A stretch of 64,000 nt of DNA. It comes from a virus. Below the pieces are notes generated by a model. It saw only the letters and a list, made by a program, of their open reading frames with translations, was not told the DNA's origin and did not search any database. Position 1 is the first letter of the stretch. Every line of letters starts with the position of its first letter. Of the stretch, positions 2,652-61,109 are shown piece after piece. Where the stretch lies: the UHGV virus genome UHGV-0141541. One strand, 5' to 3'. The position numbers and the translations under genes were made by a program.

Positions 2652-2684
2652 CAAAAAGGGTGGGCGTATAGCCCACCCTTTAAC
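2652..2684 (-). terminator. intrinsic terminator/attenuator after capsid gene
   Basis: minus-strand hairpin AAAGGGTGGGC-TATA-CGCCCACCCTTT followed by TTTTT, between capsid stop and Ig-like gene RBS. Confidence 0.5.
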
Positions 2685-2712
2685 ATAGATAATTACTTAT
2701 CTACTGCATTGA

Positions 2713-3588
2713 TTAAATTTTTACATTGGTCAATGCAGCGATAGCCTTATCGTGCTTATTCGCCAGAGAGCAGTACCACTTCACACGGGTACGTACTGCG
2801 TCTTTGTTCTGTACAGTACCAATGTTTTCAACAACGATACCTGCGTTGTCGCCGCCATACAGACCTGTAACGCCGTTCTCTTCTGACAGATGCAGGCAGT
2901 AGATGCTTGCTTTGCCAGAATCGGTCGGGATGAAGTCGTTGATGATGAACGGAACGCCGTTATGACACAGCATCGGACGACCGAAGTTCTCCATCATGAT
3001 TTCAGACGGGCCTACGTTTACTGTACGCAGCAGCGCACGGTAAGCACGCAGGTGCTCTGAACGCATCATGATGCAGTCAGCACCAAGATCTTTCACCGCA
3101 TCGACCAGTTCGTCGAACATAGAGAAAGTCATAGATGCACCGGCGATATCGATCTTCTGATCTGCGTGCATCAGGCGTGGAATGCCGTCAAACGCCTTGT
3201 TGTTGGAGCTGGAGTCACCCAAAATCAGGTTGCGACGGAACGCACGAGCCAGACCTTTAACTTTCTGACGAACCTGAATAGCCAACTGGTTGTTGGTGTC
3301 GGCCATAGTGGTCGCCAGGAATTTATCAACGTCTACGTCACCAGCCAGAATACGCAGTTTCGCAACGCATTCTTCGAAGGTTGCTGCACCTTCAGGGATG
3401 GTGTCGTTAACGTCGATGAAGGTAGCTTCACTCAGCGTTTTTTCACGGTTGTACAGATATGCCTTTGAATTAATTTTCATAAAAGGCAGGATGGCAAACA
3501 GGTCATCGCGATCGATGATAGTTTCGATCACACCCTGTTCAAGTTCGTTGTTAGACAGCTTTTCAGCTTCTTCACGCAGTAATGGCAT
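2713..3588 (-). CDS. major capsid protein (putative)
   Basis: 291 aa ORF in the order terminase - portal - scaffold - this gene - Ig-like decoration; followed by an attenuator hairpin as expected for a highly expressed capsid gene; no sequence motif verified. Confidence 0.55.
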   Translation of the reverse strand: MPLLREEAEKLSNNELEQGVIETIIDRDDLFAILPFMKINSKAYLYNREKTLSEATFIDVNDTIPEGAATFEECVAKLRILAGDVDVDKFLATTMADTNNQLAIQVRQKVKGLARAFRRNLILGDSSSNNKAFDGIPRLMHADQKIDIAGASMTFSMFDELVDAVKDLGADCIMMRSEHLRAYRALLRTVNVGPSEIMMENFGRPMLCHNGVPFIINDFIPTDSGKASIYCLHLSEENGVTGLYGGDNAGIVVENIGTVQNKDAVRTRVKWYCSLANKHDKAIAALTNVKI

Positions 3589-3613
3589 CTATCAATTCCC
3601 TTTGATTTAGATG

Positions 3614-4501
3614 TTACTTAAGTCCAATTTTCCCCAGACCGGAGGCCAACTTATCCATAGTCGACTTGTTCTTCGGTTGGGATATTGTGTAGGTCGATTT
3701 GGAATGTGAGCCTACACCCTGCTTGGCTTCGCTACGCATCAATGCGTCAGCTTCCGGATCTGCCCGCACAATGCGTTCAATCGCGGATTCAAACGGCAAC
3801 GGCTTACCTTCACCGTCAACCAGAACAGCTCGTTCTTTGTGACCTGCCGGTTTGTCATAACCCACTACGCTACCGTCTTCACCCACTTCAAAATGAGAAC
3901 CGTAGATCACGCGGGCTTTGGCCGGGGTCATCAGAACTTTGTCACGTAGGAAGAGAGAGTTACTGAAGGAAGCGCCCACGGTCATCTCGACTAATTGAGA
4001 TTTCAGTGATGCGTTTTCACTTTCCAGTGCTGCATAACGTTCGTCACGCTGTGCCAGCTCTGCCTGGTGTGCTTCGATCATCTGTTTTTTAACAGCATCG
4101 AACTCACCACGACGCTCCAGTTCAGCTTGCTCCGCCTCACGACGTGCGTTTTCTGCGGCCTGTTCAGCTTCTAAAAGCTGGCGAGCACGAGCCGGATCGA
4201 TATCACCGTACTGAGCAAGCTGATCGGCCAATGTGCGCTCTTTCTCTTTGCGCTTCATGTTCTCCTTCAGCAGTTCAGCACCAGCTTTCTTGGTTTTACG
4301 AAGTTCGGCCAGTAACTCTTCCTGAGTCATGCCAGCGTATTCGTCATCGCCCTTCGGCTGCTCTTTTTGTTCACCCTGTTTGTCAGGATCTTGTGTACTC
4401 TGCTCATTATCAGCAGCTACACCGCCAGCGCCTCCACGCTCATGCGCTTCAGCGACATCCATCAGACCACGACGGGCCAAAAGCATTTGCCACAGATTCA
4501 T
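3614..4501 (-). CDS. scaffolding protein (putative)
   Basis: 295 aa; long E/A/Q/R-rich predicted coiled coil in the N-terminal half; located between portal and capsid genes. Confidence 0.45.
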   Translation of the reverse strand: MNLWQMLLARRGLMDVAEAHERGGAGGVAADNEQSTQDPDKQGEQKEQPKGDDEYAGMTQEELLAELRKTKKAGAELLKENMKRKEKERTLADQLAQYGDIDPARARQLLEAEQAAENARREAEQAELERRGEFDAVKKQMIEAHQAELAQRDERYAALESENASLKSQLVEMTVGASFSNSLFLRDKVLMTPAKARVIYGSHFEVGEDGSVVGYDKPAGHKERAVLVDGEGKPLPFESAIERIVRADPEADALMRSEAKQGVGSHSKSTYTISQPKNKSTMDKLASGLGKIGLK

Positions 4502-4522
4502 AAAAATTCCTTTTGTTACTTA

Positions 4523-6097
4523 TCACTCGTTCTCTTGAGTAGATGAGTCCCCATTCCCTCGGGGTTGATCTTGCCCGCTTTCTTGGGCTGCACCACGATC
4601 ATAAGTAAGTACTGACTTATTTTCAAGGGTGTTTAGATCATTTTTTGGAGGAAAATTCAAGAGATCTTTATCAAATTCCTTTTTCATCGCCTCAGTAATG
4701 TTCGGGAAAATCTTCTCAATAAGCATTTCCATCTGGTGACGACGTACAGAGTCCGGTGCCTGAAGTAATGACAGTTTCTCGGCAACAGAAAATTCATCAG
4801 TAAGGCCACGAATATCGAAACTTTCTGGATACGCAATTAAAGAGTGGTCTTCGTCCAGATCTACCCCCATCCATTTCGCAACCAGTAGCATGATTTGGCG
4901 TTCAGCCCTTTCCAGACGCTCTGCTTTTGTGACAAGCAAGCTATTTACACGCTGGAAGTCATACATTTTTGCGGCACCAGATGAATTATCGATTCCCTGT
5001 GCGTTGTCCTGCTTCGTTCGCTCACCAGCTACACCAACTGAATGGTAGATTTCGTTAATCACCGTCTTAATCGTAGTGATGATCATCTGAGCTTGTTTCG
5101 GGTCTGGTGACAGATAAAACGGCTGGTTTCCACCTTCAGAATCGTAGGTGAAGACTCGCTTTGTGCCCATTTCAAGCACTTTAGTGTGGTTTTCATCACC
5201 AGGTAAAAGCGACTGTACCGGTATAGCCAACTGGCTAAATGTCTGATCCTGAATAATGGCATCAAGGTTTGACAGATAGTTTGCAACCGCACGATCAAGA
5301 TAAGCGATATCATCGATTAACGATGGGCTGAAATACGGTGATTCACTTTCTCCAATACAATCAACAGGAAACACAGGAACTACGCCGAGATTATGCTCAC
5401 CGCTATCCTCTAAAATAACTTTTGCCTGACGGCGACCTGCTCCACCAGCGCCCTTCTTCACTTCCTCACGGAACAGATACCACTCGTTTTGTGTCCACAG
5501 ACGATAACGTTGGTATTCCTGACCTGTAGAAGTAAAAGGATCTGCGTCATCACGAGCGACTTCCACAATTAACGCCCATAACATATTCCCGTCGTCGTCC
5601 CATGCCACATCCAGCATTTGCTGAGGTGAAATCCAGTAGGCGTAGGCACGAGCATCTTTCTTTTTCTCGTCAGCTACTGACTCAACATCACCACTCATTG
5701 TGCTATCAACAACAACCCAGATACGGCCGTAGATTGACGATTGCAAATCAATGGCGGCCATAAATGAGTCAATAGAGGCATTCTGGCGAGTCGCACGTTT
5801 CCAGAAATTGCGGATCTGCTCTGGTGCCTCTTCGATATTTCTATGAATGTCTTCTTTAAAGAGATATTTGTTGATGAGGTTTACCACCTCACGAGTGTGG
5901 TTGAAGCGATAAGCACGCTCAACTCGCTCCTTAAACTCCTGATCTCCCTCTTTAAAGTAACGAAAGATATTGTCTGTAAACCAACCACGCCCGCCAGCGT
6001 AAGTGCTGGCGAGGAAGTCCCAATGTTCTTTTTTCTTTTCGTATTCCGGGTGGCGTCGCGCCACCAGATCCTTAATTTGTTTGTCGTTCAATTCCAT
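4523..6097 (-). CDS. portal protein (putative)
   Basis: 524 aa ORF immediately downstream of terminase large subunit; size and position typical of portal; no motif verified. Confidence 0.55.
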   Translation of the reverse strand: MELNDKQIKDLVARRHPEYEKKKEHWDFLASTYAGGRGWFTDNIFRYFKEGDQEFKERVERAYRFNHTREVVNLINKYLFKEDIHRNIEEAPEQIRNFWKRATRQNASIDSFMAAIDLQSSIYGRIWVVVDSTMSGDVESVADEKKKDARAYAYWISPQQMLDVAWDDDGNMLWALIVEVARDDADPFTSTGQEYQRYRLWTQNEWYLFREEVKKGAGGAGRRQAKVILEDSGEHNLGVVPVFPVDCIGESESPYFSPSLIDDIAYLDRAVANYLSNLDAIIQDQTFSQLAIPVQSLLPGDENHTKVLEMGTKRVFTYDSEGGNQPFYLSPDPKQAQMIITTIKTVINEIYHSVGVAGERTKQDNAQGIDNSSGAAKMYDFQRVNSLLVTKAERLERAERQIMLLVAKWMGVDLDEDHSLIAYPESFDIRGLTDEFSVAEKLSLLQAPDSVRRHQMEMLIEKIFPNITEAMKKEFDKDLLNFPPKNDLNTLENKSVLTYDRGAAQESGQDQPRGNGDSSTQENE

Positions 6098-6123
6098 TTG
6101 AATAACCTTAGATAACCACTTAC

Positions 6124-7380
6124 CTATCGAGAACCACCAAGAATAACACGGTTTTTGACTGGATACCTACGATGTACTGGATAGCCCAATGCGTCTGCAC
6201 TATGCTCAATGCCACCTGTCTTATCCATATCTCGTGTTCCAGGCTTGTAGATGACTTTTTCCAGTGAATCAATCAAATGCTTGCACTTCGGATCGATATA
6301 CAGCCGGATATCTCCAGATGCGGACATCAGCATTCGGTTAACAGCATTAACACGATCCGCAATTGGCGGGTGCTTTTTCGAATAATCGACACGTAAGAAT
6401 CCCTTCTCTTTGAATATGTCTACGTCAGACTCCCCACGAGCATGTTGGCGATAAGCACCTGCCGGATCTGGAAATACCGTTACCTGTGATTTCCAGCGCC
6501 AGAAGCGTCTCTCAAGCTCATCACAAACTTCTGCCGTGTTAGAGGAAAAGAGCACCAATTCATCAATTGCCCATAGCTCACCATTTGGCTGAGGTTGCAA
6601 AATTACTGAAGACATCGGGTCAATGTTGAAGTCCTGCCCTACCCATATAGGCAACCGAGGGTTGAACTGAAGCGGTTTTACATGCACGTTACGATCGAAC
6701 GGGTAGTAAACGCGCCCGGACATGTTCTCAAAGCTGGCCAGGTACTCCTGAGCGAACGATTTGGGGTCCATATCGTTCTTAGCAGCTTCAATTTCCGCCG
6801 TAGGTACAAACGGAGAATCGGCAGTTACAAACTGCCAGCTCTTCCACTGTCCCTTTCTTTGCAGCTCTACGTTCTGGCCTATAGTCCACAGTTTGTGAAA
6901 TTCCGAGAAGCCTTTTGGCGTACCAATGATCAGTGCACCGCCGCGTGTCGATGAAAGAGTAGGTCGTAACACCTTGTACCAGGTGTCAGCCTTCATATCC
7001 TGAAATTCATCAAGCACTACAAAATGCAACGCTACGCCGCGCAGAGTGTCAGGCTTATCAGCACCTTTGAGGGCGATCTCCGAACCGTTCTTCAACACGA
7101 TTGTCATCGTGGTGTCGTTCTTTTTCCTAACCCACTTACGAGGCAGAACTTCCTGTAGATCGTCCCACAAAATCTGGCGAGCCATCTGGTAAGTAGGAGC
7201 GACATACCAGACCCTTTGCTTTTTTTCCTTTGCCGCCGCACGAATAATAGTGGAGATCGACAACCGGGATTTTCCCCAGCGTCGACCAGCACAAACAACT
7301 TTAAATCGATGCGGAGACTGGAAGACTTTCATCTGTCCAGAATGCAGTTGCACAAGACTGAGCGAGGACGGGATTGCCAT
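6124..7380 (-). CDS. terminase large subunit
   Basis: 418 aa; Walker A-like CAGRRWGKS, Walker B VVLDEF, C-terminal nuclease-like region; precedes portal. Confidence 0.85.
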   Translation of the reverse strand: MAIPSSLSLVQLHSGQMKVFQSPHRFKVVCAGRRWGKSRLSISTIIRAAAKEKKQRVWYVAPTYQMARQILWDDLQEVLPRKWVRKKNDTTMTIVLKNGSEIALKGADKPDTLRGVALHFVVLDEFQDMKADTWYKVLRPTLSSTRGGALIIGTPKGFSEFHKLWTIGQNVELQRKGQWKSWQFVTADSPFVPTAEIEAAKNDMDPKSFAQEYLASFENMSGRVYYPFDRNVHVKPLQFNPRLPIWVGQDFNIDPMSSVILQPQPNGELWAIDELVLFSSNTAEVCDELERRFWRWKSQVTVFPDPAGAYRQHARGESDVDIFKEKGFLRVDYSKKHPPIADRVNAVNRMLMSASGDIRLYIDPKCKHLIDSLEKVIYKPGTRDMDKTGGIEHSADALGYPVHRRYPVKNRVILGGSR

Positions 7381-8012
7381 TATTCGTCCTCCCCTTCACT
7401 TCCATCATCTGTCGCATCAAATTCGCTTAGAGCTTCTTCTTCCAACGTCTCAAGCAATTCGTCATCGATGATTTCAGGCTCGTCGTCTTCCTGACGTAAT
7501 TTCGCCACCTGGGAAGGCGTAAGCTCACCAAATACCAGGTTCGGAATTTCTTCCTCGTCATTTTCCGCATGATCCATGCCCAATGCTTTGGACGAAACTT
7601 CAAAGCATTTTGCAAGGGTATTACTGGCTCTCTGTAAGCTCTTGAGAGAATCCTCAATCGCCCCTAAAGGCTTACCCTCACGTTTGGCCGTAGTGACTTC
7701 GACCATCACCATCTGCCCCAACGCATACGCCCAGCCGTCATAACGTGTACGACGTTCTTCTATCTTTTCCGCACGGGCTTTAGCGCGAAGCTCTGCGTCA
7801 GATTTAAGAGACTCACGAACCATCTTCCCAACAGAGTCCGCGCCTTTCTCTAATCCTCGCTTTTTGAAATGTCTGGAGAGTGTTTCACGACGAATGCCGT
7901 ACTCTTCCTCCAGCTTTGAGAGTGTATATTCGCCTGACGTCCATTTGGCTTCAGCTTCGGCCCACTCCGCTGGTGTCAGGCGAGTTTTTACCTCGTCTTT
8001 TTCGACCGTCAT
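7380..8012 (-). CDS. terminase small subunit (putative)
   Basis: 210 aa, overlaps terL start by 1 nt; N-terminal helix-turn-helix-like region and very acidic C-terminus; RBS GAGGG upstream. Confidence 0.5.
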   Translation of the reverse strand: MTVEKDEVKTRLTPAEWAEAEAKWTSGEYTLSKLEEEYGIRRETLSRHFKKRGLEKGADSVGKMVRESLKSDAELRAKARAEKIEERRTRYDGWAYALGQMVMVEVTTAKREGKPLGAIEDSLKSLQRASNTLAKCFEVSSKALGMDHAENDEEEIPNLVFGELTPSQVAKLRQEDDEPEIIDDELLETLEEEALSEFDATDDGSEGEDE

Positions 8013-8124: not shown

Positions 8125-8185
8125 GAAGCCTGCTTCCGTATATATTTAATAAGTTACTTATTATTTATATATACAGATGCAGGTC
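8125..8185. promoter_or_regulatory. IR-flanked AT-rich element (copy A), upstream of terminase operon
   Basis: GCCTGCTTC ... GATGCAGGTC arms around the AT-rich core TATATATTTAATAAG...TATTTATATATACAGA; near-identical to 37174-37233. Confidence 0.5.
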
Positions 8186-8207: not shown

Positions 8208-8474
8208 TTACATCACCAGTAACTTCGCTTTGGCTCGACCTAAAGTGGTTAACCCAAGAGTTCGGCGGTGATAGCGATTGTCACTGCGTTGGCGCGTATG
8301 CCCTTTCTCCACCAGCCCCTTTTTTATCAGAGCGCGAATTGAGAACTGGATACTTTGCTTGGTTGTCTTGTACGGCAAAACTTCAAGCAATTCGTCCAGG
8401 TCAAGTAGATGACCTCGCTCATAACCGAGATTGAGCGTTTTGATGATGTCCTTTTGTTTATCGGTTAACGTCAT
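8208..8474 (-). CDS. small basic putative winged-helix DNA-binding protein
   Basis: 88 aa, last gene of the ParB/ATPase/GNAT operon; helix-rich basic sequence; fold assignment is a guess. Confidence 0.4.
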   Translation of the reverse strand: MTLTDKQKDIIKTLNLGYERGHLLDLDELLEVLPYKTTKQSIQFSIRALIKKGLVEKGHTRQRSDNRYHRRTLGLTTLGRAKAKLLVM

Positions 8475-9374: not shown

Positions 9375-10036
9375 AAATGAACCTCATCATGACTACCATT
9401 GTGATATTCCACCTTCACGCGTTCTTTGTAGTGCTTGGTGATCTGCATATCCGGGCGCAGCGCGTTCTTCAGGTCTTCGTGAGTCGTCGCCACCATTACC
9501 GTCGCACCAACCTTTCGAGCGGCACGCTGGAGGTTAGATGCCACAACCTGAGCGGTTACACGGTCTAGAACAGCACCGAACTCGTCAGCAGCCCACACTT
9601 TAGCGCCTGACTCAATCAGTTTGGCAATCTTGAGACGATATTTCTGACCGTCTGACATTTCAGAAGGCTTGCGAACAAACAGATATGCATCGTTCAGACC
9701 AGCCATAGATAACAACCCAAGCGCATCGCTGGTCGTTTTGCCCAACTGATCGATGACGTTAACCTCATTATCGAAGGTAAAATCATCGATGGAGGCTACA
9801 GACAGCCCTTCATCCTTCATCTGTCGTTGCAACTCGCGCAGCACAACGGATTTGCCGGAACCGGATTGGCCGGTGATGTACACCACATCGCCCTGCTTCA
9901 CTTCCAGCTCCAGATTGTCGTAAAGCGTCCACTCTTTTTCGTCCAGGCCAAGCCCGAACGACTCAGCGATTTCCAACGTGCGCGTGGTTTTATTTACGCG
10001 TGTCTGAAACGATACGTTGATGATGTATTTGTTCAT
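9371..10036 (-). CDS. ABC-type ATPase (nucleotide-binding domain only)
   Basis: 221 aa; Walker A GQSGSGKS, ABC signature-like SDGQKYR, Walker B VWAADEFG, H-loop TTHE; no transmembrane partner adjacent. Confidence 0.7.
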   Translation of the reverse strand: MNKYIINVSFQTRVNKTTRTLEIAESFGLGLDEKEWTLYDNLELEVKQGDVVYITGQSGSGKSVVLRELQRQMKDEGLSVASIDDFTFDNEVNVIDQLGKTTSDALGLLSMAGLNDAYLFVRKPSEMSDGQKYRLKIAKLIESGAKVWAADEFGAVLDRVTAQVVASNLQRAARKVGATVMVATTHEDLKNALRPDMQITKHYKERVKVEYHNGSHDEVHL

Positions 10037-10734
10037 GCAGCCATCTCCCCGGAAGAGATCTTCTCCGCATATGCCACAAATGCGTCTACCCCGCTTTCTC
10101 CCGTCATTTCTTCCATGTGGGCAAGCAAATCACCAACAACAATGGCAGAGCCAGCAGGAAGCGTTTTAAAGCCCAATACGTCGACAACACGTACTTCTTC
10201 CGCTGCAACTTCACGACTGATCTCGGTGTGTTCATCCTTCTGTCGTTTAGTTTCTTCGCCAAGATCGATAACTAGCGAGTCGGTGTCCATTTCTTCTGTC
10301 ATGCTGCCAACGAGAACATTCAACTCACGCTCTTCAAAGCCGAAAACCTCGATATCGTCCAGAACAAGCGACTCAAGCTCTTTCTGTAGCTTAATTGCAT
10401 CGTAATCAATGCTGGCAAGTCGGTTATCTTCAAGGCGCTTCGCACGAACCTCGTCATCACTGAGATCATCGCGAACAATAACCGGTACGCGCTCAAGTCC
10501 AGCAAAAATTGCAGCCTCACGGCGGCCGTGGCCAGTAATAATTACGTCGTTCTTATCGACCGTAATTGGCTGGTCAAATCCGCGCTTTTTAATGGCTGCG
10601 GCTAGATCTCGGATCTGCTGTTCATCATGCTTTTTGGCATTCATCTCATAGGGAATAAGATCTGCCGGGTCGCGATATACGATTTCTAACTTTTTGGTCA
10701 TTACATACGCTCCTTGTAGTAGTCGACCAGCCAC
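10033..10734 (-). CDS. ParB N-terminal (ParB/Srx-like nuclease) domain protein
   Basis: 233 aa; ParB box ITGHGRREAA; acidic C-terminal half; real start may be MTKKLEIVY at 10702. Confidence 0.7.
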   Translation of the reverse strand: MAGRLLQGAYVMTKKLEIVYRDPADLIPYEMNAKKHDEQQIRDLAAAIKKRGFDQPITVDKNDVIITGHGRREAAIFAGLERVPVIVRDDLSDDEVRAKRLEDNRLASIDYDAIKLQKELESLVLDDIEVFGFEERELNVLVGSMTEEMDTDSLVIDLGEETKRQKDEHTEISREVAAEEVRVVDVLGFKTLPAGSAIVVGDLLAHMEEMTGESGVDAFVAYAEKISSGEMAA

Positions 10735-11399: not shown

Positions 11400-11463
11400 T
11401 AAGTAATCACTTACTTATTATAATAGCCAAATAACATACAAAAGGCACTAAGGAAAGAGGTTT

Positions 11464-13023: not shown

Positions 13024-13025
13024 TT

Positions 13026-13304
13026 ATGAGCGAAAAGAAAACAACTTATTGTCAGGTAGCATTGTCTGATAAGGCCAATGACAAACTTGGAAAGTTTCAA
13101 GTGAAACTAAAAGAAAAAAATATCAAAATGTCTAAGGCTGAAGTCATAAATACCATTCTGGAACAATTGACAATGGCCGACTTTGACAAGGTTATATCTT
13201 CTGTCGGGGCTTCCGCTAAGACTCGTGAGAAAATCATGCGTATCTATGAGAACTCTAATATGACAAAGGAAGATCTCGAAACGCTATTAAGCAGATTAAA
13301 ATAA
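13026..13304 (+). CDS. hypothetical protein
   Basis: 92 aa ORF immediately after helicase stop; K/E-rich. Confidence 0.5.
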   Translation: MSEKKTTYCQVALSDKANDKLGKFQVKLKEKNIKMSKAEVINTILEQLTMADFDKVISSVGASAKTREKIMRIYENSNMTKEDLETLLSRLK

Positions 13305-13330
13305 TCACGCTATCAATTAGGGAGACAAAG

Positions 13331-13795: not shown

Positions 13796-13799
13796 TGAC

Positions 13800-14324: not shown

Positions 14325-14327
14325 GTT

Positions 14328-14636: not shown

Positions 14637-14648
14637 ATCTATAAGGTT

Positions 14649-14680
14649 AATAACCGGCTAAGTCCGGTTATTATTTTTCA
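14649..14680 (+). terminator. intrinsic terminator
   Basis: hairpin AACCGG-CTAAGT-CCGGTT followed by T-run ATTATTTTT after the 14328-14636 gene. Confidence 0.5.
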
Positions 14681-14826
14681 TATCACTTCTTTATATCTAC
14701 AAATCAAATAACCTAAATATATATAAGGTCTAAAGCCGCAATCGATTATTTATTTAGGGAACACCTTCGACGATCTCGCTTTTATTTCTAGGACTTTCAT
14801 CCCTGCAAAAAATTTTAAAAAAACAC

Positions 14827-16073: not shown

Positions 16074-16078
16074 AATCG

Positions 16079-18410: not shown

Positions 18411-18474
18411 TTCACTCTCCGTAGTGTCTTAGTTATTTTTATATTTTATAGTCGTAAGTATGTACTTACAATAC

Positions 18475-31553: not shown

Positions 31554-31614
31554 GTGTTTTTCTCTTATCGTTTAGTCACTAAATTCTTACACAAATTAAG
31601 TAAGTATTTACCTA

Positions 31615-35517: not shown

Positions 35518-35665
35518 GTGGACTCCATCCAGTGTCAGAAAGAGTTGCGGCTGGCGATTGCCAGCCGCCTTTCTCGTTCCATCCTGGAACTGTGTCTTAC
35601 CGACACATTGTCATCCTGACGCCGATAAGATACATGATTTAAAATGATAGGTAAACACTTACTTA

Positions 35666-37848: not shown

Positions 37849-38031
37849 CTTCTTTCTCGATAGGTAAGTAAATACCTATTTTTGCATTTGATTATATGTC
37901 TGGCAATCAAATAAAACGCGCCAGAAATGCAAACGAGAAGCTCTCTGGCGCGTTTTTGTGGTGCTGGGTATGTGATTGGCTTACCCAGCACTATAAAGCT
38001 CTCTATGGGCTTTATTTTCAGTAGGGGAACG

Positions 38032-42683: not shown

Positions 42684-42854
42684 AAAAACCTCACAAAGAT
42701 AAGTAATCACTTATTCATTAAGTGAGTTTACATTTATTGTGGGAACAAGGCCAGATAGATAAAAAAATGGTGGCCTATGGCCACCAAAAACGAATAGTTG
42801 CTTCAGGAATTTAACGCGCCAACACAATATACATAGATAGATAACTACCTACAA

Positions 42855-47365: not shown

Positions 47366-47438
47366 GTATCACCAAATAAAGAGGGCCACTAAATATAGTG
47401 GCCCATGTTAATAGATAAGCACTTACCTATCAATGAAA

Positions 47439-51982: not shown

Positions 51983-52236
51983 GTGTTTTTCCTTTGTGGT
52001 TATTTTGATACAAATTTTAAGAGCAATGAGAAGGTAAACAACTATGCATAACGGTATGTTAGGAATGAAACGAACGTCTTAATATACAAAATTTATAAGT
52101 AAGTATATACCTATTTGTTGTGACGCAACTTTGCTTGTCTGTATAACTAAAAATAAGACAGGATCACTGTAGAACGCTATGAGAGCTATTTTGAGGAGGC
52201 GTAGATTCTATCTACGCCAATATACGATCTGGAGGG

Positions 52237-54877: not shown

Positions 54878-55090
54878 TTAGTGTATTTTCTTCAACAGAC
54901 CCCAAAGTGTTCCGGCTTTTGTAGTCAGTTTTCCTGTTTCTGGATCGTACATACGCCATTCACGCCGCTGGTGGACGATATACCCATCTTCACGTTCCAG
55001 ACGCTCAAGAATGCCAGGCTGCTTGAAACCCTTAGCACGCCAGTATCCGGTTGTTTTCTCGATTTCCAGACCTGCCAGTGTTAATGCCAT
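54878..55090 (-). CDS. hypothetical small protein
   Basis: 70 aa; followed by perfect palindrome GACTGCGGCAC/GTGCCGCAGTC at 54848-54869. Confidence 0.4.
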   Translation of the reverse strand: MALTLAGLEIEKTTGYWRAKGFKQPGILERLEREDGYIVHQRREWRMYDPETGKLTTKAGTLWGLLKKIH

Positions 55091-55425
55091 TATCCAACCT
55101 CCTTGCAGTCATCGAAAAGGTAGCTTTGCTGAGAAGCGTGAACGCCATAGAAGCCCTTGTATTTGTTGTATACGAAGTGGTCTTCTCCGACGCCGGTTAA
55201 TTTGCCATTACGGTTTGTGAGATATGGGGATGACAATACTCGATCGTCTCGCACAACATAGAACTGGTCGCCGCTGTCTACGACCATCGCGCCATATGGT
55301 GCTTTTATGACGTCGGTAAGAGCGCCATTCTTAACGTCGGCTACAGACATTTCACACTGATAAACAGTGGTGTCGGCCACAACGATCGAAGAAAGGAACA
55401 ACAGCGCGAATGGGATGGCCTTCAT
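55090..55425 (-). CDS. secreted protein (signal peptide)
   Basis: 111 aa; N-terminal MKAIPFALLFLSSIVVA; RBS GAGGTG. Confidence 0.5.
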   Translation of the reverse strand: MKAIPFALLFLSSIVVADTTVYQCEMSVADVKNGALTDVIKAPYGAMVVDSGDQFYVVRDDRVLSSPYLTNRNGKLTGVGEDHFVYNKYKGFYGVHASQQSYLFDDCKEVG

Positions 55426-55601
55426 GCTGCCACCTCTTTGATTACATCAAATGCTGAATTAAATACGAGCACGATAGCCAAAGCGTTTATGACTACGTCG
55501 TTCACCGGGGAAAAGACTTTACGAATGACACCAGTGAAAATGCAGTCGATGACAAAAGCTATTGACACGATGAGTAACAAGTATTCAATAAAAATCTTCA
55601 T
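55422..55601 (-). CDS. small hydrophobic membrane protein (not in ORF track, 59 aa)
   Basis: translated by hand: MKIFIEYLLLIVSIAFVIDCIFTGVIRKVFSPVNDVVINALAIVLVFNSAFDVIKEVAA; stop overlaps next start (ATGA); no clear RBS. Confidence 0.4.
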   Translation of the reverse strand: MKIFIEYLLLIVSIAFVIDCIFTGVIRKVFSPVNDVVINALAIVLVFNSAFDVIKEVAA

Positions 55602-55640
55602 GATAGGTAGATACTAACTTATATAAATTTTACTGTAAAC

Positions 55641-55916
55641 TCACTCAAAAGTGCTGATGCTTAAAATACGCTCAAGATGTGCGGCATCTTCATCACTGAT
55701 TTGTTGAGTCTCTTCTACGTACCAACAGTTGCCGTTATGCCAACAAACACCATCATCATCAATCATCACTGAATCAGCGTCATGACCTGTATATTCAACG
55801 AGAATACGCTGGATCAGCGCGTCAGTTTCTTCGTCGTTAAGGCCATCGGCTTTGACCATAAAAAGCGGAAACACGTCATAGACAGTGCTGGTAACGATTC
55901 GAACTAAAACTCTCAT
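55641..55916 (-). CDS. hypothetical acidic protein
   Basis: 91 aa ORF. Confidence 0.45.
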   Translation of the reverse strand: MRVLVRIVTSTVYDVFPLFMVKADGLNDEETDALIQRILVEYTGHDADSVMIDDDGVCWHNGNCWYVEETQQISDEDAAHLERILSISTFE

Positions 55917-55971
55917 GTGTTTTTCCTTTTGTGGTTAGTGTTTACTTATTTTGTTAGTTATGAATAGGCGA

Positions 55972-56397
55972 TCAATCTTCTTGTTTAGGGAAAAACTGTT
56001 CAATAACTCTGTCAACGGCTGTGTCTATATGGAGTAGATGCCACACAACCATATCTTTGCTTCCCATGCCTTGTGTGAATATCACGTCATACTTACGCCA
56101 TGCGCAGTGGAACCAATATGCTGAGTCATCAATTGGTAAATCCTCTCCCGCCTCTTTGAAGTATTTCAGCAGCATTGCCTGCTCTGCCGTTGGCGTTGGA
56201 CCTATTTCCTGAGCGTACATACGGATGAATCGCTGCCAGTCTGTCTCGTCGGGGGTTGGATCTGGTGGGGTCATTTCTGCGATAGCGTTTCGTAGCTGAT
56301 GCGCCCAATCAGGTTCAGGAAAGCCTTTTGCTACTTCATCATCAATAACATCCAGAGCCACGTTTGCAGCATCGTAGAGTTTCTTAATAGCTGTCAT
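55972..56397 (-). CDS. hypothetical protein
   Basis: 141 aa ORF preceded by motif family 1 copy at 56414-56445. Confidence 0.5.
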   Translation of the reverse strand: MTAIKKLYDAANVALDVIDDEVAKGFPEPDWAHQLRNAIAEMTPPDPTPDETDWQRFIRMYAQEIGPTPTAEQAMLLKYFKEAGEDLPIDDSAYWFHCAWRKYDVIFTQGMGSKDMVVWHLLHIDTAVDRVIEQFFPKQED

Positions 56398-56488
56398 GTT
56401 TTCTTATCCTTTCAAACAAATTGTTTTCTTAATAAGATAATTGCGATAAAAAAGGCGTCCAACTGGACGCCTGAACTTTTTAGGGGAG

Positions 56489-57319
56489 TTATTTCACTGT
56501 AATGAAAGGAGTGTTAGCCCCTTGAGTCATGTACTGCGGTAACTGGCCATTCCATTTATTGATGGCTTCCAGTTCCATAACGTTCGGGTTTTGACGCAGA
56601 GCTTCACCGCGCAGACGAATGGCGTCTGCTTCTGCTTGCGCACGAGCACGGATAGCATCAGCTTCACCATTAGCCTGTTCACGTAGCATATTCGCCTCAG
56701 CTTTACGTTGTTCAACTTCCTGCTGACGTTGCAGAGTACGCTGGTTAGCCGTTACTTTGGCGTTGATCGATTCAATGACGGTTTTTGGGTAATCAGGCTT
56801 TCCAACCCATGACAGGCTCAGTACCTCAATACCAACCGGAGACATCTCTTTCTGAATATCTTTCAGTGCGTTGTCCAGCAATTGTGCCTTACCACCGTCG
56901 ATAAATGAGTCAGTGGTCATACGGCTGGCCAAACGGTTTAGAGAGTCGGCAATTTTCTGACGCAGATCTGATTCGGTGATATCGTCTACGCCTTTGCGAT
57001 AGGTCTGGAACACCGTCGTTACCTTGTCACGATTAACCAGATACGCAACGCCAATTTTGTGACCAATAGCAGTACCGTCACTCATCTGGAATGTGAACGG
57101 CTCGTCGTAGGTCTTCATTTGTTTGAAGGTCGGAAATACGTAAAGTTCGGTGTTAAGACCTGTCCATTGGCGACCAACGCCAACTACTTCACCAATCCCT
57201 TTGTCTTCACCTAATTTGTTTACTTTGATGCCAACGTATCCAGGCTCCACGCGATCACAGCCAGTAAGACCCATTGTGCAAATAGCCGCCAGAGCAACTG
57301 CAAGTAAACCTTTCTTCAT
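56489..57319 (-). CDS. SPFH/band-7 domain lipoprotein
   Basis: 276 aa; lipobox LTGC; C-terminal coiled-coil region typical of prohibitin/HflC-like proteins. Confidence 0.65.
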   Translation of the reverse strand: MKKGLLAVALAAICTMGLTGCDRVEPGYVGIKVNKLGEDKGIGEVVGVGRQWTGLNTELYVFPTFKQMKTYDEPFTFQMSDGTAIGHKIGVAYLVNRDKVTTVFQTYRKGVDDITESDLRQKIADSLNRLASRMTTDSFIDGGKAQLLDNALKDIQKEMSPVGIEVLSLSWVGKPDYPKTVIESINAKVTANQRTLQRQQEVEQRKAEANMLREQANGEADAIRARAQAEADAIRLRGEALRQNPNVMELEAINKWNGQLPQYMTQGANTPFITVK

Positions 57320-57322
57320 TAC

Positions 57323-57523
57323 TTATTTCCCCTTTGCTTTGATTAATGAGTTAATAAATTTACGACCAGCAATAAGACCGATTACAGGAGCACCAAAACC
57401 AACGATAATTCCAAACATGACGGCTAAATCACTCTTGGTAGAAATCAGCGACGGAACCAGTAAACCGTAGATGAGAGCCACTGAAAGGCCTGTGGTTACT
57501 GCCAATAGATAGATTTTGATCAT
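57323..57523 (-). CDS. small two-TM membrane protein
   Basis: 66 aa, two hydrophobic helices, immediately upstream of the SPFH gene. Confidence 0.45.
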   Translation of the reverse strand: MIKIYLLAVTTGLSVALIYGLLVPSLISTKSDLAVMFGIIVGFGAPVIGLIAGRKFINSLIKAKGK

Positions 57524-57615
57524 GTGTTTTCCTATGTGGTTGTTATGCGAAAATAATAAGTAAGTACTTATATATTTTCAAGAGATAAAAAAGGCGTCCT
57601 GTGGACGCCTTGTGT

Positions 57616-58689
57616 TTACTCTTCTACTGACTCGGTGGGGGTGTCTTTTGCTCTCCGGTCGTCGATTGCCTGCAAAGCCGCAATGATTTCAGCTAGTGGC
57701 TTCTCCCGATACATCTCGACGATCTGTGATTTGGTGTATTTCTTGTCGCCAATTTCTACTCGACCGCTTGCGTTCTTTGGCAGGTATCCTTCATCCAGCA
57801 TGTACTCGACGAGCGATTCGATAACGTCGAGGCCACGAGTAGGATCGAAGTAGAATTTCCAGGTGCACTTGCCATAAGGTGGTGCAACTTTGTTTTTGAT
57901 GCACTCTGCGCCTACGTCCTGACCGATCTTCTCTTTACCATCCTTCATCACCGATGCACCGAGACGGATGCGCACAGAAGCGTAAAACTTCGGCGAATCG
58001 CCACCTGGTGACGTCGTAGGGTCGCCAAACATTACACCGATTTTTGTGCGAACCTGATTCAAGAAGATGATGCAGGCGTTGTATTTGCGTGCCCACAAAG
58101 CCAGAGTGGGGAAGTTCGCACTCGTCGCACGAGCCAGCGCCGTATTGTCATTCATGTTTAGCTGATCTTTGTCTTTGGCAGTGCCTTCAGCCATCTTTTC
58201 GAACTTCTCGGCTTTGGAGTTCGGAACCATAGACGCAAGTGAGTCCGCCACGATACAGATAGGTGCTGATTCAGGGATAAGCTCTTCATCACGTACCAAT
58301 TTAAGTATTGTGCCGATCAACTCCACAGAGTCTTCGAAGGTATCTGGCTGCTTGTATACCCACTGGCCGTCATCTTCATCTGCGTTCAGACCATTGGCGA
58401 CAGCCAGGCCAACGTCAAAACTGTTCTCATGATCGAGGAATACCGCCAGACCATCTTGTTTCTGAGCGGAGATCATTGCTGCCGTTGCCAAAAAGGTTTT
58501 CCCCGCGCTTGGCGGCCCGAATACTTCTACGATACGACCACATGGGAAACCGCCATCGTAACGACCGGAAATCGCTTTGTTTAACGGAGGAAAGCCTGTG
58601 TCAATCCAATGAGTTACTTTCTGTATTTCGTCGTTGCTACCGATTTTCTTTTTCAGAGCAAGTGCCAGTGCGGATTTTCCTTTTGCCAT
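57616..58689 (-). CDS. RecA-family recombinase
   Basis: 357 aa; GRIVEVFGPPSAGKT Walker A in RecA-like context, Walker B region IVADSL. Confidence 0.75.
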   Translation of the reverse strand: MAKGKSALALALKKKIGSNDEIQKVTHWIDTGFPPLNKAISGRYDGGFPCGRIVEVFGPPSAGKTFLATAAMISAQKQDGLAVFLDHENSFDVGLAVANGLNADEDDGQWVYKQPDTFEDSVELIGTILKLVRDEELIPESAPICIVADSLASMVPNSKAEKFEKMAEGTAKDKDQLNMNDNTALARATSANFPTLALWARKYNACIIFLNQVRTKIGVMFGDPTTSPGGDSPKFYASVRIRLGASVMKDGKEKIGQDVGAECIKNKVAPPYGKCTWKFYFDPTRGLDVIESLVEYMLDEGYLPKNASGRVEIGDKKYTKSQIVEMYREKPLAEIIAALQAIDDRRAKDTPTESVEE

Positions 58690-58691
58690 GA

Positions 58692-58964
58692 TCAGGCTCC
58701 TTTTGTTTCGTTGATTCGTTTTAAAGCGGCGGATTCGTCGAATACAATCGCATCGTGGTTAAGGAGTCTGGATACACGAGCGAGGATTTTTACGACCTGC
58801 TCGCTGACTAATCCAAACTCGCGATCTGTCGCTTTCATTCCGGCAGCGCCTAGAATTGACGGCAGCGCGATGACAGCGTACTCACCGTGATAAAAGACAA
58901 TCTCCTTTGCCAGTTGGGCAGGGGTGGTTGTAGCGCCATTAATAATTGATTTAAGCATTAGCAA
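58692..58964 (-). CDS. hypothetical small protein
   Basis: 90 aa; short overlaps with flanking FEN and RecA-like genes. Confidence 0.4.
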   Translation of the reverse strand: MLMLKSIINGATTTPAQLAKEIVFYHGEYAVIALPSILGAAGMKATDREFGLVSEQVVKILARVSRLLNHDAIVFDESAALKRINETKGA

Positions 58965-59902
58965 TACCTTTCGAATGGAAGAACAAACACTTCAAGGTCT
59001 TCAAGGAACGAACGGAAATTCAGCTCGTAGCACAGTTGCTCGAATGCTTTCACGTCACGATTGCCTTTGATTGTTTCGATTTCGGTAGGCGGAAACTTCG
59101 TCTCAATCAGGTTCATTAGCGTGATGTTTCTCTTGAACGCTTCGAGCATTCGACAGCCTGTTTTCTCGTTGAAGGCATTCTTCGCTAGTTTGTTGAAGGC
59201 GGTTTTATGGCGTCCTTTGTCAACCACTATTGAGCCGTCGTTAATGCCGCGCACCATCGTTGCGACGCTTCCCCATTCATGCAGCAGCTCTTTCGCACCG
59301 CCAGCGCCAATGCCACCAACACCGCTAATGTTGTCCGAGTTATCGCCTTGTAATGCTTTTGCTTCCAAAAATGCGCGAGGCGTGGCGAATCCTGTCAGCT
59401 CCGCAAATTGCTCAAAATTAACCTGCTTGTTTTTGGCGTCTTCACGCAGGCTTACCCAGCTTACGTTTTCACGAACTAACTGAAGCCAGTCGCTATCGCC
59501 TGTTAACAGATAGATGTGTTCAACGGTTGGCTGCGGTGCCATGCGGGATACCAGCAGCCCGGCCAGATCATCCGCTTCTGCATCTTTTGCAATGATTTGG
59601 TTAACACCAAGCGCGGTCATCATTTTGAGGATGTATGGCTTCTGGACAGAAAAGCCTTCCTTCATCTTTTTCATATCAGGATCGTCGTCGCGATTTGCTT
59701 TGTAGTCCGGGTAAAAGTCGCGACGCTTGTCACTAAATCCATCCCAAAGAATCATAGGTCGGGCATGGAGGATGGAGGCATAACGACGGACGTTCTTAAC
59801 AAAGCCGAAAGCAGCCTGAACTTCCATTTCGCCGTTGTGCAATTTGTCAGATTGTTGGTGGTAATAACCTAGGCTATTGCCATCTACGAAGAGATAATTC
59901 AC
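58958..59902 (-). CDS. 5'-3' exonuclease / flap endonuclease (FEN family)
   Basis: 314 aa; LFVDGNSL, TGDSDWLQL, helix-3-turn-helix GVGGIGAGGAKELL. Confidence 0.85.
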   Translation of the reverse strand: MNYLFVDGNSLGYYHQQSDKLHNGEMEVQAAFGFVKNVRRYASILHARPMILWDGFSDKRRDFYPDYKANRDDDPDMKKMKEGFSVQKPYILKMMTALGVNQIIAKDAEADDLAGLLVSRMAPQPTVEHIYLLTGDSDWLQLVRENVSWVSLREDAKNKQVNFEQFAELTGFATPRAFLEAKALQGDNSDNISGVGGIGAGGAKELLHEWGSVATMVRGINDGSIVVDKGRHKTAFNKLAKNAFNEKTGCRMLEAFKRNITLMNLIETKFPPTEIETIKGNRDVKAFEQLCYELNFRSFLEDLEVFVLPFERYC

Positions 59903-59963
59903 CGGTGCATTCCTTCCAAAAAAGTAAGGCGTCCGTAGACGCCTTACTGGTCACGTAATGGGA

Positions 59964-60992
59964 TTACAGAGAGTCAAGCTCTCTCAGTAGATCATCCAGA
60001 CCTTCATCTTCCGTCGCAGATGCGGCTGCTACAGATGTCGCTGCGACTGCTTCAGACTCTTTGACTGATACGGCAACGGCAGCGGAACTTGCCTCTGGTT
60101 TAAATTCAGTTTCAACGGCTCGGAGGATTTCTTCATCAACCAGACTGGTTGGTTCAGAAGCTGGGGTGTGAGCGGTTGCTACAGCAGTCGCACCCTCCGT
60201 ATGACCAGTGACAGAGCCAAATCCAGGCAGTGCCGCGGTCGATGTTTTCGCGGTAGAGGAAATTGCTGGTGCAGATGCAGAGGCAGTTGGTGCTGCGATG
60301 CCAATCAGACGACCCATAGTGCGAACTGTCGAGAGAAGACGAGTTTCATCAGCCTGATTTGCGTATGCGATCAGGTCATGCTGGGTATTCCAGAATTTAT
60401 CTTCGATATCGCCTTTGTAGACTTTACGCTTAGGCGAGACGTCATATTTGGTATCGCGACCAGAACCAGTACGTTTAATCAGGAATGCGTAGCCTTCCTC
60501 TTTGCTCAGTGGATTACCGATATCATCAGCGATGTCTTCGGTGATTGCTTTGCAGATATCATCGAATACAGTGGAAGGCAGTTCGATTAACTGGCATTTC
60601 TCTGCATCGGCGAAATCCTCACGAGCTGAAAGAATGCCGTTGACCAGGTAGCGAGGCGTGGCACGCATTTGACCGATGCGTTCTTCCATTGCTTTGTTAC
60701 CCTTGTGACGAGCGCGACCTTCCATCACCATTTCGCATAGCTGACAAGCGCGACCGTGAGTATGTTGCTCACAAATATAAGCGTTGGTTGCTTCTTTACC
60801 TTCCTCGTTCTGATACTTAACGTAGTGCATACCGAAAGTCTGGAAGAACTTACCGTTTGGGTCGTCTTTATTCGGGAAGATGCGGATATAGTTGACGCCG
60901 TCTTTTAAGCGAGTCAGATCAACGTTGTTACCACGTTTGGCGGCAATGTCTTCACGAGTTTTGTTAAGCAAATCAAGTAATGTCTTAGACAT
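59964..60992 (-). CDS. single-stranded DNA-binding protein, T4 gp32-like (tentative)
   Basis: 342 aa; His/Cys zinc site CEQHTHGRACQLC, Ala/Ser/Thr-rich linker, acidic C-terminal tail EDEGLDDLLRELDSL. Confidence 0.45.
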   Translation of the reverse strand: MSKTLLDLLNKTREDIAAKRGNNVDLTRLKDGVNYIRIFPNKDDPNGKFFQTFGMHYVKYQNEEGKEATNAYICEQHTHGRACQLCEMVMEGRARHKGNKAMEERIGQMRATPRYLVNGILSAREDFADAEKCQLIELPSTVFDDICKAITEDIADDIGNPLSKEEGYAFLIKRTGSGRDTKYDVSPKRKVYKGDIEDKFWNTQHDLIAYANQADETRLLSTVRTMGRLIGIAAPTASASAPAISSTAKTSTAALPGFGSVTGHTEGATAVATAHTPASEPTSLVDEEILRAVETEFKPEASSAAVAVSVKESEAVAATSVAAASATEDEGLDDLLRELDSL

Positions 60993-61109
60993 GTGTTTCT
61001 CCTTGTTGTGATTTGGCCGATGGCGCTATGCGCGTTGGGCTTTCGTTCATTCGTGGCTCTTTCGAGCTGTTAAATGATAGATCAGTACTTACTTATTATC
61101 TATCAAAAA

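Follow-up and report, generated by a model that had tools for sequence, protein, structure and literature searches.

What does a single palindromic sequence do when it recurs in front of so many genes of one replicon? The stretch of DNA analysed here (the window; 64,000 nucleotides, 86% coding) belongs to an SSU5-like phage-plasmid with ~99% identity to Escherichia phage Cyrano (pLF82). The original prediction listed 13 copies of a second family of dyad-symmetric sites in the window, placed 15-50 nt upstream of the starts of replication and structural genes, and suggested a second regulator or promoter class, perhaps a temporal one.

The family, hereafter motif 2, is captured best by an 18-26 bp palindrome, (GA)TARGTAAGT/ACTTACYTA(TC), with about 15 copies in the window and about 30 per genome in Cyrano. 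Allowing at most one mismatch, TARGTA-N2-TACYTA gives 16 matches versus 0.18 in dinucleotide shuffles (n=50), and TARGTA-N6-TACYTA gives 11 versus 0.14 (n=50); the window scan yielded zero matches to the same half-sites at spacings of 0, 1, 3, 4, 5, 7, 8 and 10-12. A position weight matrix (PWM) at a threshold of at least 16 bits retrieves 14 sites from the window against 0.02 expected, and the outermost TA..TA positions are the best conserved. Motif 2 is hence a real family, far from chance, represented in the window by 14 strong sites and one atypical one. Fourteen of these 15 are non-coding (binomial P = 1.2e-11, given the 86% coding window). The distance to the next start codon runs from 2 to 130 nt, a wider range than had been proposed, with five sites (portal, ParB, dam, thyA and hyp60) at 2-18 nt. 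The sites, to which no strand is assigned, and the terminators beside some of them are as follows:

2686..2703: 18-mer core between the MCP stop and the Ig-like gene, 24.1 bits; same-junction copies in SSU5 (5472) and IMG/VR relatives, changed form in Acinetobacter
2662-2678: terminator hairpin directly after the 2686..2703 palindrome
4602..4619: 3' end of the portal ORF, upstream of a scaffold-like gene and MCP, 27 bits; next gene 100 nt downstream; within the spacer of promoter match TTGAAA-17-TATGAT (10/12); kept in relatives down to 69% portal identity
6109..6126: fills the 26-nt TerL-portal gap, portal ATG 11 nt away, 21.2 bits; palindrome at this junction also in SSU5 and the Acinetobacter relative
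11400..11417: divergent ParB-like/UvsW helicase control region, 24.8 bits; equivalent position occupied in relatives and Acinetobacter
18453..18469: atypical, a perfect 16-bp palindrome GTAAGTAnnTACTTAC with the short-spacing (N2) dyad only, 4.5 bits in the family register; overlaps promoter match TTGTAA-17-TAAAAT
31597..31614: upstream of an Ead/Ea22-like gene, 27.8 bits; SSU5 counterpart 84179
35648..35665: downstream of RNase H and upstream of hyp83, 27.3 bits; SSU5 counterpart 79905
37861..37878: dam ATG 12 nt downstream, 27.5 bits; SSU5 counterpart 77652
42700..42717: 16 nt upstream of thyA, 22.8 bits; SSU5 counterpart 72512
42834..42851: another palindrome in the MazG-thyA gap, with a terminator (42768-42786) downstream of it, 19 bits
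47412..47429: upstream of nrdA, inside promoter match TTGATA-17-TAACAT, 29.9 bits; SSU5 counterpart 67776
47383-47404: terminator hairpin following the 47412..47429 palindrome
52096..52113: upstream of sbcD, 26.4 bits; SSU5 counterpart 63081
55604..55621: annotated hyp60 start 2 nt away, inside promoter match TTTATA-16-TATCAT, 22.9 bits; SSU5 counterpart 58075
57557..57574: just after a terminator, upstream of a small membrane protein gene, 25.7 bits; within the spacer of promoter match TTGAAA-17-TATTAT (10/12); SSU5 counterpart 55696
61078..61095: between uvsY and a gp32-like ssb, inside promoter match TAGATA-17-TATCAT, 27.1 bits; SSU5 counterpart 52176

Twelve of the 13 copies in the original prediction are clear members (PWM scores of 21-30 bits). 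The remaining one, 18453-18469, is an atypical or doubtful member, present in Cyrano and with no counterpart in SSU5, and two genuine sites had been missed, namely 4602-4619 and 42834-42851, the second site before thyA. The genes had been assigned correctly (Ig-like, portal, UvsW helicase/ParB, thyA, nrdA, sbcD and dam), and the proposed separation from motif 1, which is AAACAAnTTGTTT, is borne out by differences in sequence, in placement relative to -10 boxes and in gene set. Weak PWM matches at 8150 and 37198 were rejected as members, being the AT-rich tips of a separate repeated 55-bp hairpin.

A temporal class does not agree with the genes that follow the sites. Early-type genes (nrdA, thyA, ssb, sbcD, dam and uvsW) and late genes (portal, scaffold/MCP and Ig-like in the window; tail, tail fibre and holin elsewhere in Cyrano) are preceded by motif 2 alike, and the division that it marks would thus be one between lytic and lysogen-expressed genes rather than between lytic stages. 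Conservation at homologous positions in relatives, which had been proposed as a check, was found: the motif is kept in SSU5 and many other relatives, with positions shared down to 69% portal identity. In IMG/VR the exact 20-mer occurs in SSU5-like contigs only. Among species-representative genomes it appears merely as 13 singletons in unrelated MAGs, and the exact palindrome is absent from enterobacterial representatives. This distribution makes a host regulon unlikely.

The nature of the binding partner is suggested by the variation within the sites. Half-site variants are independent of each other at positions 3/16 (Fisher P = 0.66 in Cyrano, 0.07 in SSU5) and at positions 4/15 (P = 1), and A.C mismatches between the arms are as common as G.T mismatches; this points to a dimeric DNA-binding protein and not to a base-paired RNA or DNA hairpin. 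The best explanation, with a probability of roughly 0.6, is that motif 2 constitutes the dispersed operators of the phage-plasmid's own XRE-type immunity repressor, which would keep the lytic genes silent in the plasmid state. The candidate, known as CYRAN_45 in Cyrano, is an XRE-family helix-turn-helix protein of 128 aa; its gene adjoins that of the integrase, outside the window, and is assumed to be present here from the element's 99% identity to Cyrano. Both the binding of the motif by this protein and repression through that binding are what we infer, the link of repressor to motif coming from location and from co-variation over only three lineages.

As to location, the repressor gene in Cyrano has a promoter TTTACA-16-TAATAT followed directly by CGGTAAGyACTTACCA, the sole perfect match in that genome to the 14-bp inner core of motif 2. 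In all lineages examined the core lies over the repressor gene start predicted from the promoter hexamers, and this block is invariant across repressors ranging from 100% to 56% identical, with drifting flanks. As to co-variation, a Klebsiella pneumoniae lineage with a 48% identical repressor and a similar recognition helix has a multi-copy motif that is also similar, and a tandem pair of copies precedes its repressor gene. In a distant Acinetobacter relative, whose repressor has the recognition helix IGFKRPNVLSMIK versus IGYKNANNLSLIK, the palindrome is changed to CAGTCAGTACTGACTG: CAGTCAN4TGACTG is found in 22 copies versus 0.1 expected, and no site of the E. coli type is present. The changed palindromes occupy the same junctions (TerL-portal, after MCP and ParB/UvsW), and three copies lie between the repressor gene and a divergent gene. 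The site thus co-varies with the repressor in these three lineages, a similar helix going with a similar motif and a divergent helix with a changed one. An operator regulon should have many copies of one site before lytic units, one also in the immunity region or at the promoter of the repressor itself, and a site that varies with the repressor; all three features are seen, the second in copies lying entirely outside the window and the third in the small sample of three lineages. These observations from the repressor locus and the relatives, the strongest for the repressor link, come from beyond the window. Transcription in an LF82 lysogen is consistent with the same reading: there, Cyrano expression above background includes the repressor and none of the motif 2 genes (PMC9928086). 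So is the distribution of the repressor-integrase module, which is missing in the lytic isolate SSU5 and found on ~995 plasmids, including those of Salmonella, Yersinia, Klebsiella and Acinetobacter.

The copies at the repressor gene favour prophage-repressor operators over a special promoter class. The original suggestion of a second regulator stands in the form of a dedicated sequence-specific regulator, and its promoter-class half is not favoured. Under the proposed scheme, each 18-26 bp palindrome would be bound by a repressor dimer. With the palindromes overlapping or adjoining core promoters, some 30 lytic transcription units, which serve replication, recombination, nucleotide metabolism, packaging, head, tail and lysis, would stay silent during plasmid life. 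A few sites lie in gaps too short for a promoter, where the only possible effect of a bound protein would be to obstruct transcribing RNA polymerase. At the start of the repressor gene itself, the weaker copy (9.6-12 bits) would provide negative autoregulation, and once the repressor was lost or inactivated, all units would be released together. That this copy is without the outer TA..TA counts against the operator reading, as does the rarity, among well-studied Gram-negative phages, of late structural and lysis genes under direct repressor control.

The geometry of the promoters bears on both this reading and its main rival. Sigma70-like -35/-10 consensus matches on the gene strand, from which alone start sites were predicted, overlap 8 of the 15 sites. 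The palindrome occupies the spacer at five of them (4602, 18453, 55604, 57557 and 61078), and that at 47412 covers the -35 hexamer together with most of the spacer. At dam the palindrome directly follows the promoter match TTGCCA-17-AAAAAT (TG) and so would cover the start site. Such overlap is the usual geometry of operators. A recognisable -35 is missing at most sites, with TTGAAA at 17 bp in only 2 of ~20, and this also counts against operators, since promoters like these might have too little activity to call for repression and would fit an activator-dependent design.

The rival built on that design holds that the sites are activator-dependent lytic promoters resembling the late promoters of P1, at which a phage activator bound to the palindrome near -20 would replace the missing -35, the -10 hexamer being made up of the motif's final TA and the four bases after it. 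Bound over the repressor start as well, this activator would stop repressor synthesis in lytic growth. Among -10-like elements, TAnnnT at motif positions 17-22 (45-55% of sites) is indeed alone in being enriched by position, and the P1 late promoters follow the same plan, with a 9-bp palindrome AAGTnACTT, 4 nt and a -10, the centre of motif 2 being AAGTACTT. The candidate activator is an 88-aa MarR-like winged-helix protein (8208-8474), encoded just upstream of terS as lpa is before pacA in P1, confined to the SSU5-like family and nearly invariant in its recognition helix. SSU5 retains 22 strong sites despite having no repressor. This counts against the operator reading too, being compatible with recent repressor loss but also with a positive role in lytic growth. 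However, a -10-like hexamer is as frequent on the mirror side (40-68%), and its presence on both sides marks it as part of a 26-bp palindrome rather than a directional promoter element. At the five sites 2-18 nt from a start codon, a transcript beginning ~12 nt downstream would miss the ribosome-binding site, and in Acinetobacter the distance from palindrome to TATAAT varies (2, 9 and 21 nt). Moreover, the winged-helix recognition helix is almost the same in Acinetobacter, whereas 3 of 10 half-site positions of the motif have changed; tblastn detected no Lpa homologue, and early-type genes are preceded by the motif too, not late genes alone. Taken together, an activator seems an unlikely explanation, though one to be reckoned with.

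Far less probable is that the palindromes are parS- or OB-like sites of two ParB_N proteins (10033-11381) acting as KorB-like global regulators. Both ParB_N-domain genes are conserved, one with a motif copy 18 nt before its start, and the KorB structure 8qa8 appears among weak matches. KorB binds 12 palindromes at RK2 promoters. Against this, the two proteins are acidic (pI 4.5-4.6), have only the N-terminal domain recognised and no evident helix-turn-helix, and show no link to the immunity region. Slimmer again are the chances of an RNA element, in which the transcribed palindrome would form a hairpin that is cut by RNase III or otherwise processed, stabilises the RNA or is the target of a translational repressor, such as a conserved FljA-like protein (13764-14324). 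The sites are intercistronic and near ribosome-binding sites, a 9-11 bp stem can form and the FljA-like RNA-binding protein is conserved in the SSU5-like family. However, the arms do not covary, compensatory changes that keep base pairing, as expected of structured RNA or RNase III sites, were not seen between them, and sense-strand A.C mismatches are as frequent as G.U. Conservation is at the level of sequence and highest at the outer positions, the distance to the start codon is variable, and the copies over the predicted start of the repressor gene, with the three in the Acinetobacter immunity region, have the context of DNA operators. Least probable of all are sites for a host transcription factor, for instance of the NarL/LuxR type: the half-site TACYTAT fits the NarL heptamer, TACYYMT, and the changed motif in the Acinetobacter-hosted lineage could reflect another host factor, but the half-site order is opposite to that of NarL 7-2-7 sites, the exact palindrome is restricted in IMG/VR to SSU5-like contigs and the motif is tied to the element's own repressor locus.

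The repressor-operator reading finds its closest parallels in a few known systems. Like the C1 regulon of P1, with its many dispersed operators (immC/Op sites), it would involve a plasmid prophage with lytic functions split over many small transcription units (as in the P1 annotation), each guarded by one copy of a repressor site overlapping the promoter, with copies at the repressor's own promoter too and the repressor gene adjoining that of a site-specific recombinase. Unlike the palindromic motif 2, the P1 operators are asymmetric 17-mers, and the candidate here is a small XRE-type protein, with no C1 homologue detected by tblastn (best E = 2.7); on both counts motif 2 falls outside the C1 operator family proper. 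The late genes of P1 are moreover under Lpa and not directly under C1, whereas motif 2 also precedes head, tail and lysis genes. The ~11 dispersed Lpa-dependent late promoters of P1 (-22 box AAGTnACTT plus -10) share with motif 2 an AAGT/ACTT palindrome immediately before a -10 and the lack of a -35. They differ from it in having a 9-bp box and a 4-nt gap in place of an 18-26 bp palindrome whose own sequence supplies the hexamer's TA; motif 2 has its mirror-image hexamer equally present and also stands before nrdA, thyA, ssb and dam. The best tblastn match to Lpa (E = 0.45) falls in a Cyrano gene absent from the window. The geometry, the one-sided -10 and the restriction to late genes all being absent, Lpa-dependent promoters proper were rejected.

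Mycobacteriophage L5 and other Cluster A phages carry ~24-30 stoperators per genome for the gp71 repressor, mostly in short intergenic gaps of early and late regions; a number of them are in places that have no promoter and would silence by blocking elongation, and some Cluster A prophages are extrachromosomal. Motif 2 resembles them in its many dispersed, mostly intergenic copies in early and late regions, some in promoter-less gaps. Stoperators are asymmetric 13-mers bound by monomers in strict orientation to transcription, in contrast to motif 2, which is symmetric and in about half of its copies overlaps promoter-like sequences; host phylum and repressor family differ as well. The symmetry of the sites and their flanks sets motif 2 apart from stoperators proper. 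Finally, KorA and KorB of the IncP plasmid RK2 coordinate expression of the whole replicon through palindromic operators at at least 12 promoters. Motif 2 is similar in placing putative palindromic operators at a dozen or more promoters across a replicon. The regulator would be of a different family, and the ParB-like proteins encoded here look unsuited to specific DNA binding.

Motif 2, the recurrent palindrome under study, is borne out as a genuine dyad family, with both pattern and weight-matrix counts far above expectation. The pattern TAAGTA-NN-TACTTA, with one mismatch allowed, has 11 matches in the window against 0.04 expected. When spacings of 0 to 12 were scanned with the variable positions opened to R/Y, only N2 (16 matches against 0.18) and N6 (11 against 0.14) were populated. 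A 4-nt repeat within the half-site (TARG-TAAG-T) makes these two readings of a single element, an 18-bp palindrome TARGTAAGT-ACTTACYTA that is mostly extended to GATA...TATC. At a threshold of at least 16 bits, a symmetrised PWM recovers 14 sites in the window, against 0.02 in shuffles. Twelve of the 13 sites listed in the original prediction are strong members, the exception being 18453, a shorter palindrome in another register without an SSU5 counterpart; sites 4602 and 42834 are additions to that list. Fourteen of the 15 sites are non-coding in a window that is 86% coding (P = 1.2e-11), and the gap to the next start codon is 2-130 nt rather than the 15-50 nt first described. Weak matches at 8150 and 37198 were rejected as belonging to a different repeat, a 55-bp hairpin.

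By Megablast, the window belongs to the SSU5-type phage-plasmids: it shares 99.0% identity over 8 kb with Escherichia phage Cyrano (pLF82, OV696614) and is about 77% identical to Salmonella phage SSU5. Transfer of the annotated Cyrano genes provided the gene map, in which the minus strand carries nearly all genes:

1-8000, head and packaging genes (Cyrano annotation)
~13000-31000, accessory region (Cyrano annotation)
22261-24294 (-), full-length methionyl-tRNA synthetase in the accessory region
24452-25552 (+), MinD/ParA-like ATPase in the accessory region, expressed in the LF82 lysogen
25590-25979 (-), S24 peptidase without a DNA-binding domain (UmuD/HumD-like) in the accessory region
31000-62000, T4-like replication, recombination and nucleotide-metabolism genes (Cyrano annotation)

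At 57616-58964 (-) the window has a 357-aa UvsX/RecA ORF and a separate 90-aa ORF, whereas the Cyrano 'RecA' gene is 2340 nt long (55065-57404); alignment of the two genes is limited to the 3' 850 nt (94%), and the difference suggests an insertion polymorphism, an intein or other insert. The translation-start context AGAAAACACATG is strongly over-represented throughout the window, as upstream of the starts at 31553, 57523 and 60992, and AGAAAACA occurs 23 times against 4 expected.

The remainder of Cyrano has more motif-2 sites before tail, tail-fibre, holin, helicase-region and other genes, giving about 30 in total, and in SSU5 the corresponding junctions are occupied by 22 strong sites. Conservation at homologous positions thus holds in SSU5, and it extends to the relatives in IMG/VR: among eighty recovered by their portal protein, sites persist to portal identities as low as 69%, at the junctions ParB/UvsW, TerL-portal, portal 3' end and MCP-Ig. 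More distant relatives retain the outer half-sites (ATAGGTA...TACCTAT) around a variable centre, and the two most distant lack the MCP-Ig site while keeping the terminator 3' of that position. Motif-2 sites can thus be gained or lost.

The candidate regulator is CYRAN_45, a 128-aa putative repressor of Cyrano whose gene adjoins the integrase and lies outside the window; its Pfam matches to XRE-type HTH domains are weak and under the curated cut-offs. The gene has a predicted promoter, TTTACA-16-TAATAT, followed directly by CGGTAAGCACTTACCA, which is Cyrano's only perfect match to the 14-bp inner core RGTAAGnnCTTACY. This promoter-plus-palindrome block is invariant between divergent flanks across repressor lineages ranging from 100% to 56% protein identity. 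The repressor-integrase module is found on about 995 plasmids of Escherichia, Klebsiella, Enterobacter, Salmonella, Yersinia and Acinetobacter, and is absent from SSU5. One lineage from K. pneumoniae encodes a repressor of 48% identity whose recognition helix is similar; its multi-copy motif is similar too, and two tandem copies lie upstream of the repressor gene. In an Acinetobacter phage-plasmid whose gene order is the same, the recognition helix diverges further (IGFKRPNVLSMIK against IGYKNANNLSLIK) and E. coli-type motif-2 sites are absent. This element has instead 22 copies of CAGTCAN4TGACTG, against 0.1 expected, which lie at the equivalent junctions (TerL-portal, after MCP and before a terminator, ParB/UvsW and tail genes), three copies being placed between the repressor gene and the divergent gene; there are no sites of this type in the window. 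These lineage comparisons indicate that the motif and the repressor locus change together.

The Cyrano genes whose expression exceeds background in the LF82 lysogen comprise the repressor gene, toxin-antitoxin genes, those following ParA and a small set of accessory genes (PMC9928086). None of the genes following motif-2 sites is among them in these data, whereas several of the expressed genes follow sites of motif 1, a separate dyad family. Hence, the two motifs separate lysogen-on from lysogen-silent genes, and not early from late lytic genes as the proposal of a temporal class had implied. Motif 1 (AAACAAnTTGTTT) closes a conserved stretch of about 35 nt, ..GATAATaAcgCCAAcAAGAAAACAAnTTGTTT, which places it just downstream of a -10 box. 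There are about 18 copies each in Cyrano and SSU5 and none in the Acinetobacter relative; the ParA operon, hyp101/102 and hyp108/109, all expressed in the LF82 lysogen, lie behind some of them. The copies in the window are:

8054, 17194, 17958, 18860, 22114, 22165, 34028, 34757, 44976 and 56415, motif 1

The best-supported explanation, to which we assign a probability of about 0.6, is that motif 2 constitutes the dispersed operator regulon of a prophage repressor. Such a regulon would act in the manner of the P1 C1 operators and, at sites without room for a promoter, like the stoperators of L5, the sites of its gp71 repressor. Motif 2 belongs to neither family, since its sites are symmetric and, with respect to P1, there is no C1 homologue; tblastn with P1 Lpa or C1 gave nothing significant.

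The main rival, which we consider rather improbable, is a class of promoters that depend on an activator, as those of P1 depend on Lpa. In its favor, a -35 at the correct distance from motif 2 is rare, SSU5 retains the sites, and a gene for a MarR-like winged-helix protein lies just upstream of terS. However, the flanks are symmetric. On comparing downstream flanks with mirrored upstream flanks, with -10 scores at all offsets from 11 to 60, the sole positionally enriched hexamer was a -10-like TAnnnT from motif position 17 at about half of the sites. It is equally frequent on the mirror side and is thus the edge of a 26-bp palindrome that gives no direction, by which a directional promoter element was rejected. 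Furthermore, at five sites the start codon is too near for a ribosome-binding site in a transcript starting about 12 nt downstream. The geometry around promoters is also variable: sigma70-like consensus matches on the gene strand overlap 8 of the 15 sites, with the palindrome within the 16-17 bp promoter spacer at five (4602 and 57557 score 10/12), covering the -35 hexamer and most of the spacer at 47412, and directly 3' of the -10 at 37861. Likewise, the counterpart palindromes of the Acinetobacter relative are separated from clear TATAAT boxes by 2, 9 or 21 nt. Such variation is more in keeping with an operator than with a fixed promoter module. The P1 -22 box, AAGT/ACTT, resembles the centre of motif 2 but differs in spacing.

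The winged-helix protein itself (8208-8474, minus strand) is an 88-aa basic protein encoded immediately upstream of terS, confined to SSU5-like elements and predicted to adopt a MarR/MepR-like fold (AlphaFold pLDDT 85; Foldseek probability 1.0). Its recognition helix hardly varies, and stays almost the same in the Acinetobacter relative despite the changed motif; we therefore rejected it as the motif-2 binder and retain it only within the activator alternative. Its DNA target could be the pac site or another operator.

A ParB/KorB-type explanation is unlikely. The ParB-like proteins at 10033-11381 (-) are two adjacent acidic proteins (pI 4.5-4.6) with the ParB N-terminal domain only, in which no DNA-binding domain was detected; their genes open the operon ending with terS/terL. 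Scanning about 40 small conserved proteins against Pfam and PHROGs yielded no further regulator. A host factor is also unlikely as the binder. IMG/VR contains 39 stretches with the exact 20-mer ATARGTAAGTACTTACYTAT, every one examined being SSU5-like, and the species-representative genomes (596 Gb) yielded only 13 hits, each a singleton in an unrelated MAG; no exact palindrome was found in the enterobacterial representatives. This family-specific distribution argues for an element-encoded factor.

An RNA hairpin, which would require covariation between the arms, is unlikely as none was found: left and right variable positions are independent within a genome (positions 3/16, Fisher P = 0.66 in Cyrano and 0.07 in SSU5; positions 4/15, P = 1), and A.C mismatches between the arms are as common as G.T. 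From this independence of the half-sites we conclude that motif 2 is probably recognised by a dimeric DNA-binding protein. Three junctions (2655-2683, 47383-47404 and 42768-42786) have the order stop codon, motif-2 site, terminator hairpin and next gene, with 6-11 nt from palindrome to terminator start. An antitermination set-up was rejected since distant relatives keep the terminator without the motif, making the two independent modules.

The principle of dispersed repressor operators is already well known. A more tentative and, on balance, doubtful extension of the operator reading is a stoperator-like silencing network in Gram-negative phage-plasmids, in which a small XRE repressor on about 30 symmetric sites would silence early and late lytic genes together. 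At sites without promoter room, such as the 26-nt TerL-portal gap, where the site is conserved even in Acinetobacter, the repressor would block RNA polymerase. Joint diversification of operator and repressor specificities (half-sites TARGTAAGT against TCAGTCAGT) would define immunity groups among the clinically important SSU5/pHCM2/pMT1/pKpn/Acinetobacter phage-plasmids. SSU5-like elements are common in E. coli, Salmonella (pHCM2), Yersinia pestis (pMT1), Klebsiella and Acinetobacter, and carry resistance genes. Full-text literature searches turned up no account of their operators or immunity control, and a 2024 review lists no regulatory circuit for the group. If true, these proposals would supply an operator sequence, a map of silenced transcription units and a candidate repressor, explain why SSU5, which is without the repressor module, was recovered as a phage and not a plasmid, make immunity groups predictable from sequence alone, and offer ready parts with which to induce or cure the elements experimentally and to engineer virulent derivatives for use in biocontrol.

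Two further features were observed. The protein encoded at 13764-14324 (+) is FljA-like (Pfam Flag1_repress, E = 2e-84, with a weak Hfq/LSM match) and is conserved in Cyrano and SSU5, annotated respectively as 'transcriptional regulator' and 'transcriptional repressor'; carriage of such a phase-1 flagellin repressor homologue may allow the phage-plasmid to interfere with flagellin expression in its host. The third repeat is a 55-bp near-perfect hairpin, CCTGCTTCCGTATATAT...ATATACAGAAGCAGG, present at 8129-8183 and 37176-37232 in the window, with a third Cyrano copy near 31165-31215; it is conserved in SSU5, at three copies per genome. Its AT-rich tip is the source of the weak false motif-2 matches. 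With a predicted folding energy of -31 to -45 kcal/mol in 100-nt contexts and a T run after some copies, it looks like a strong bidirectional terminator.
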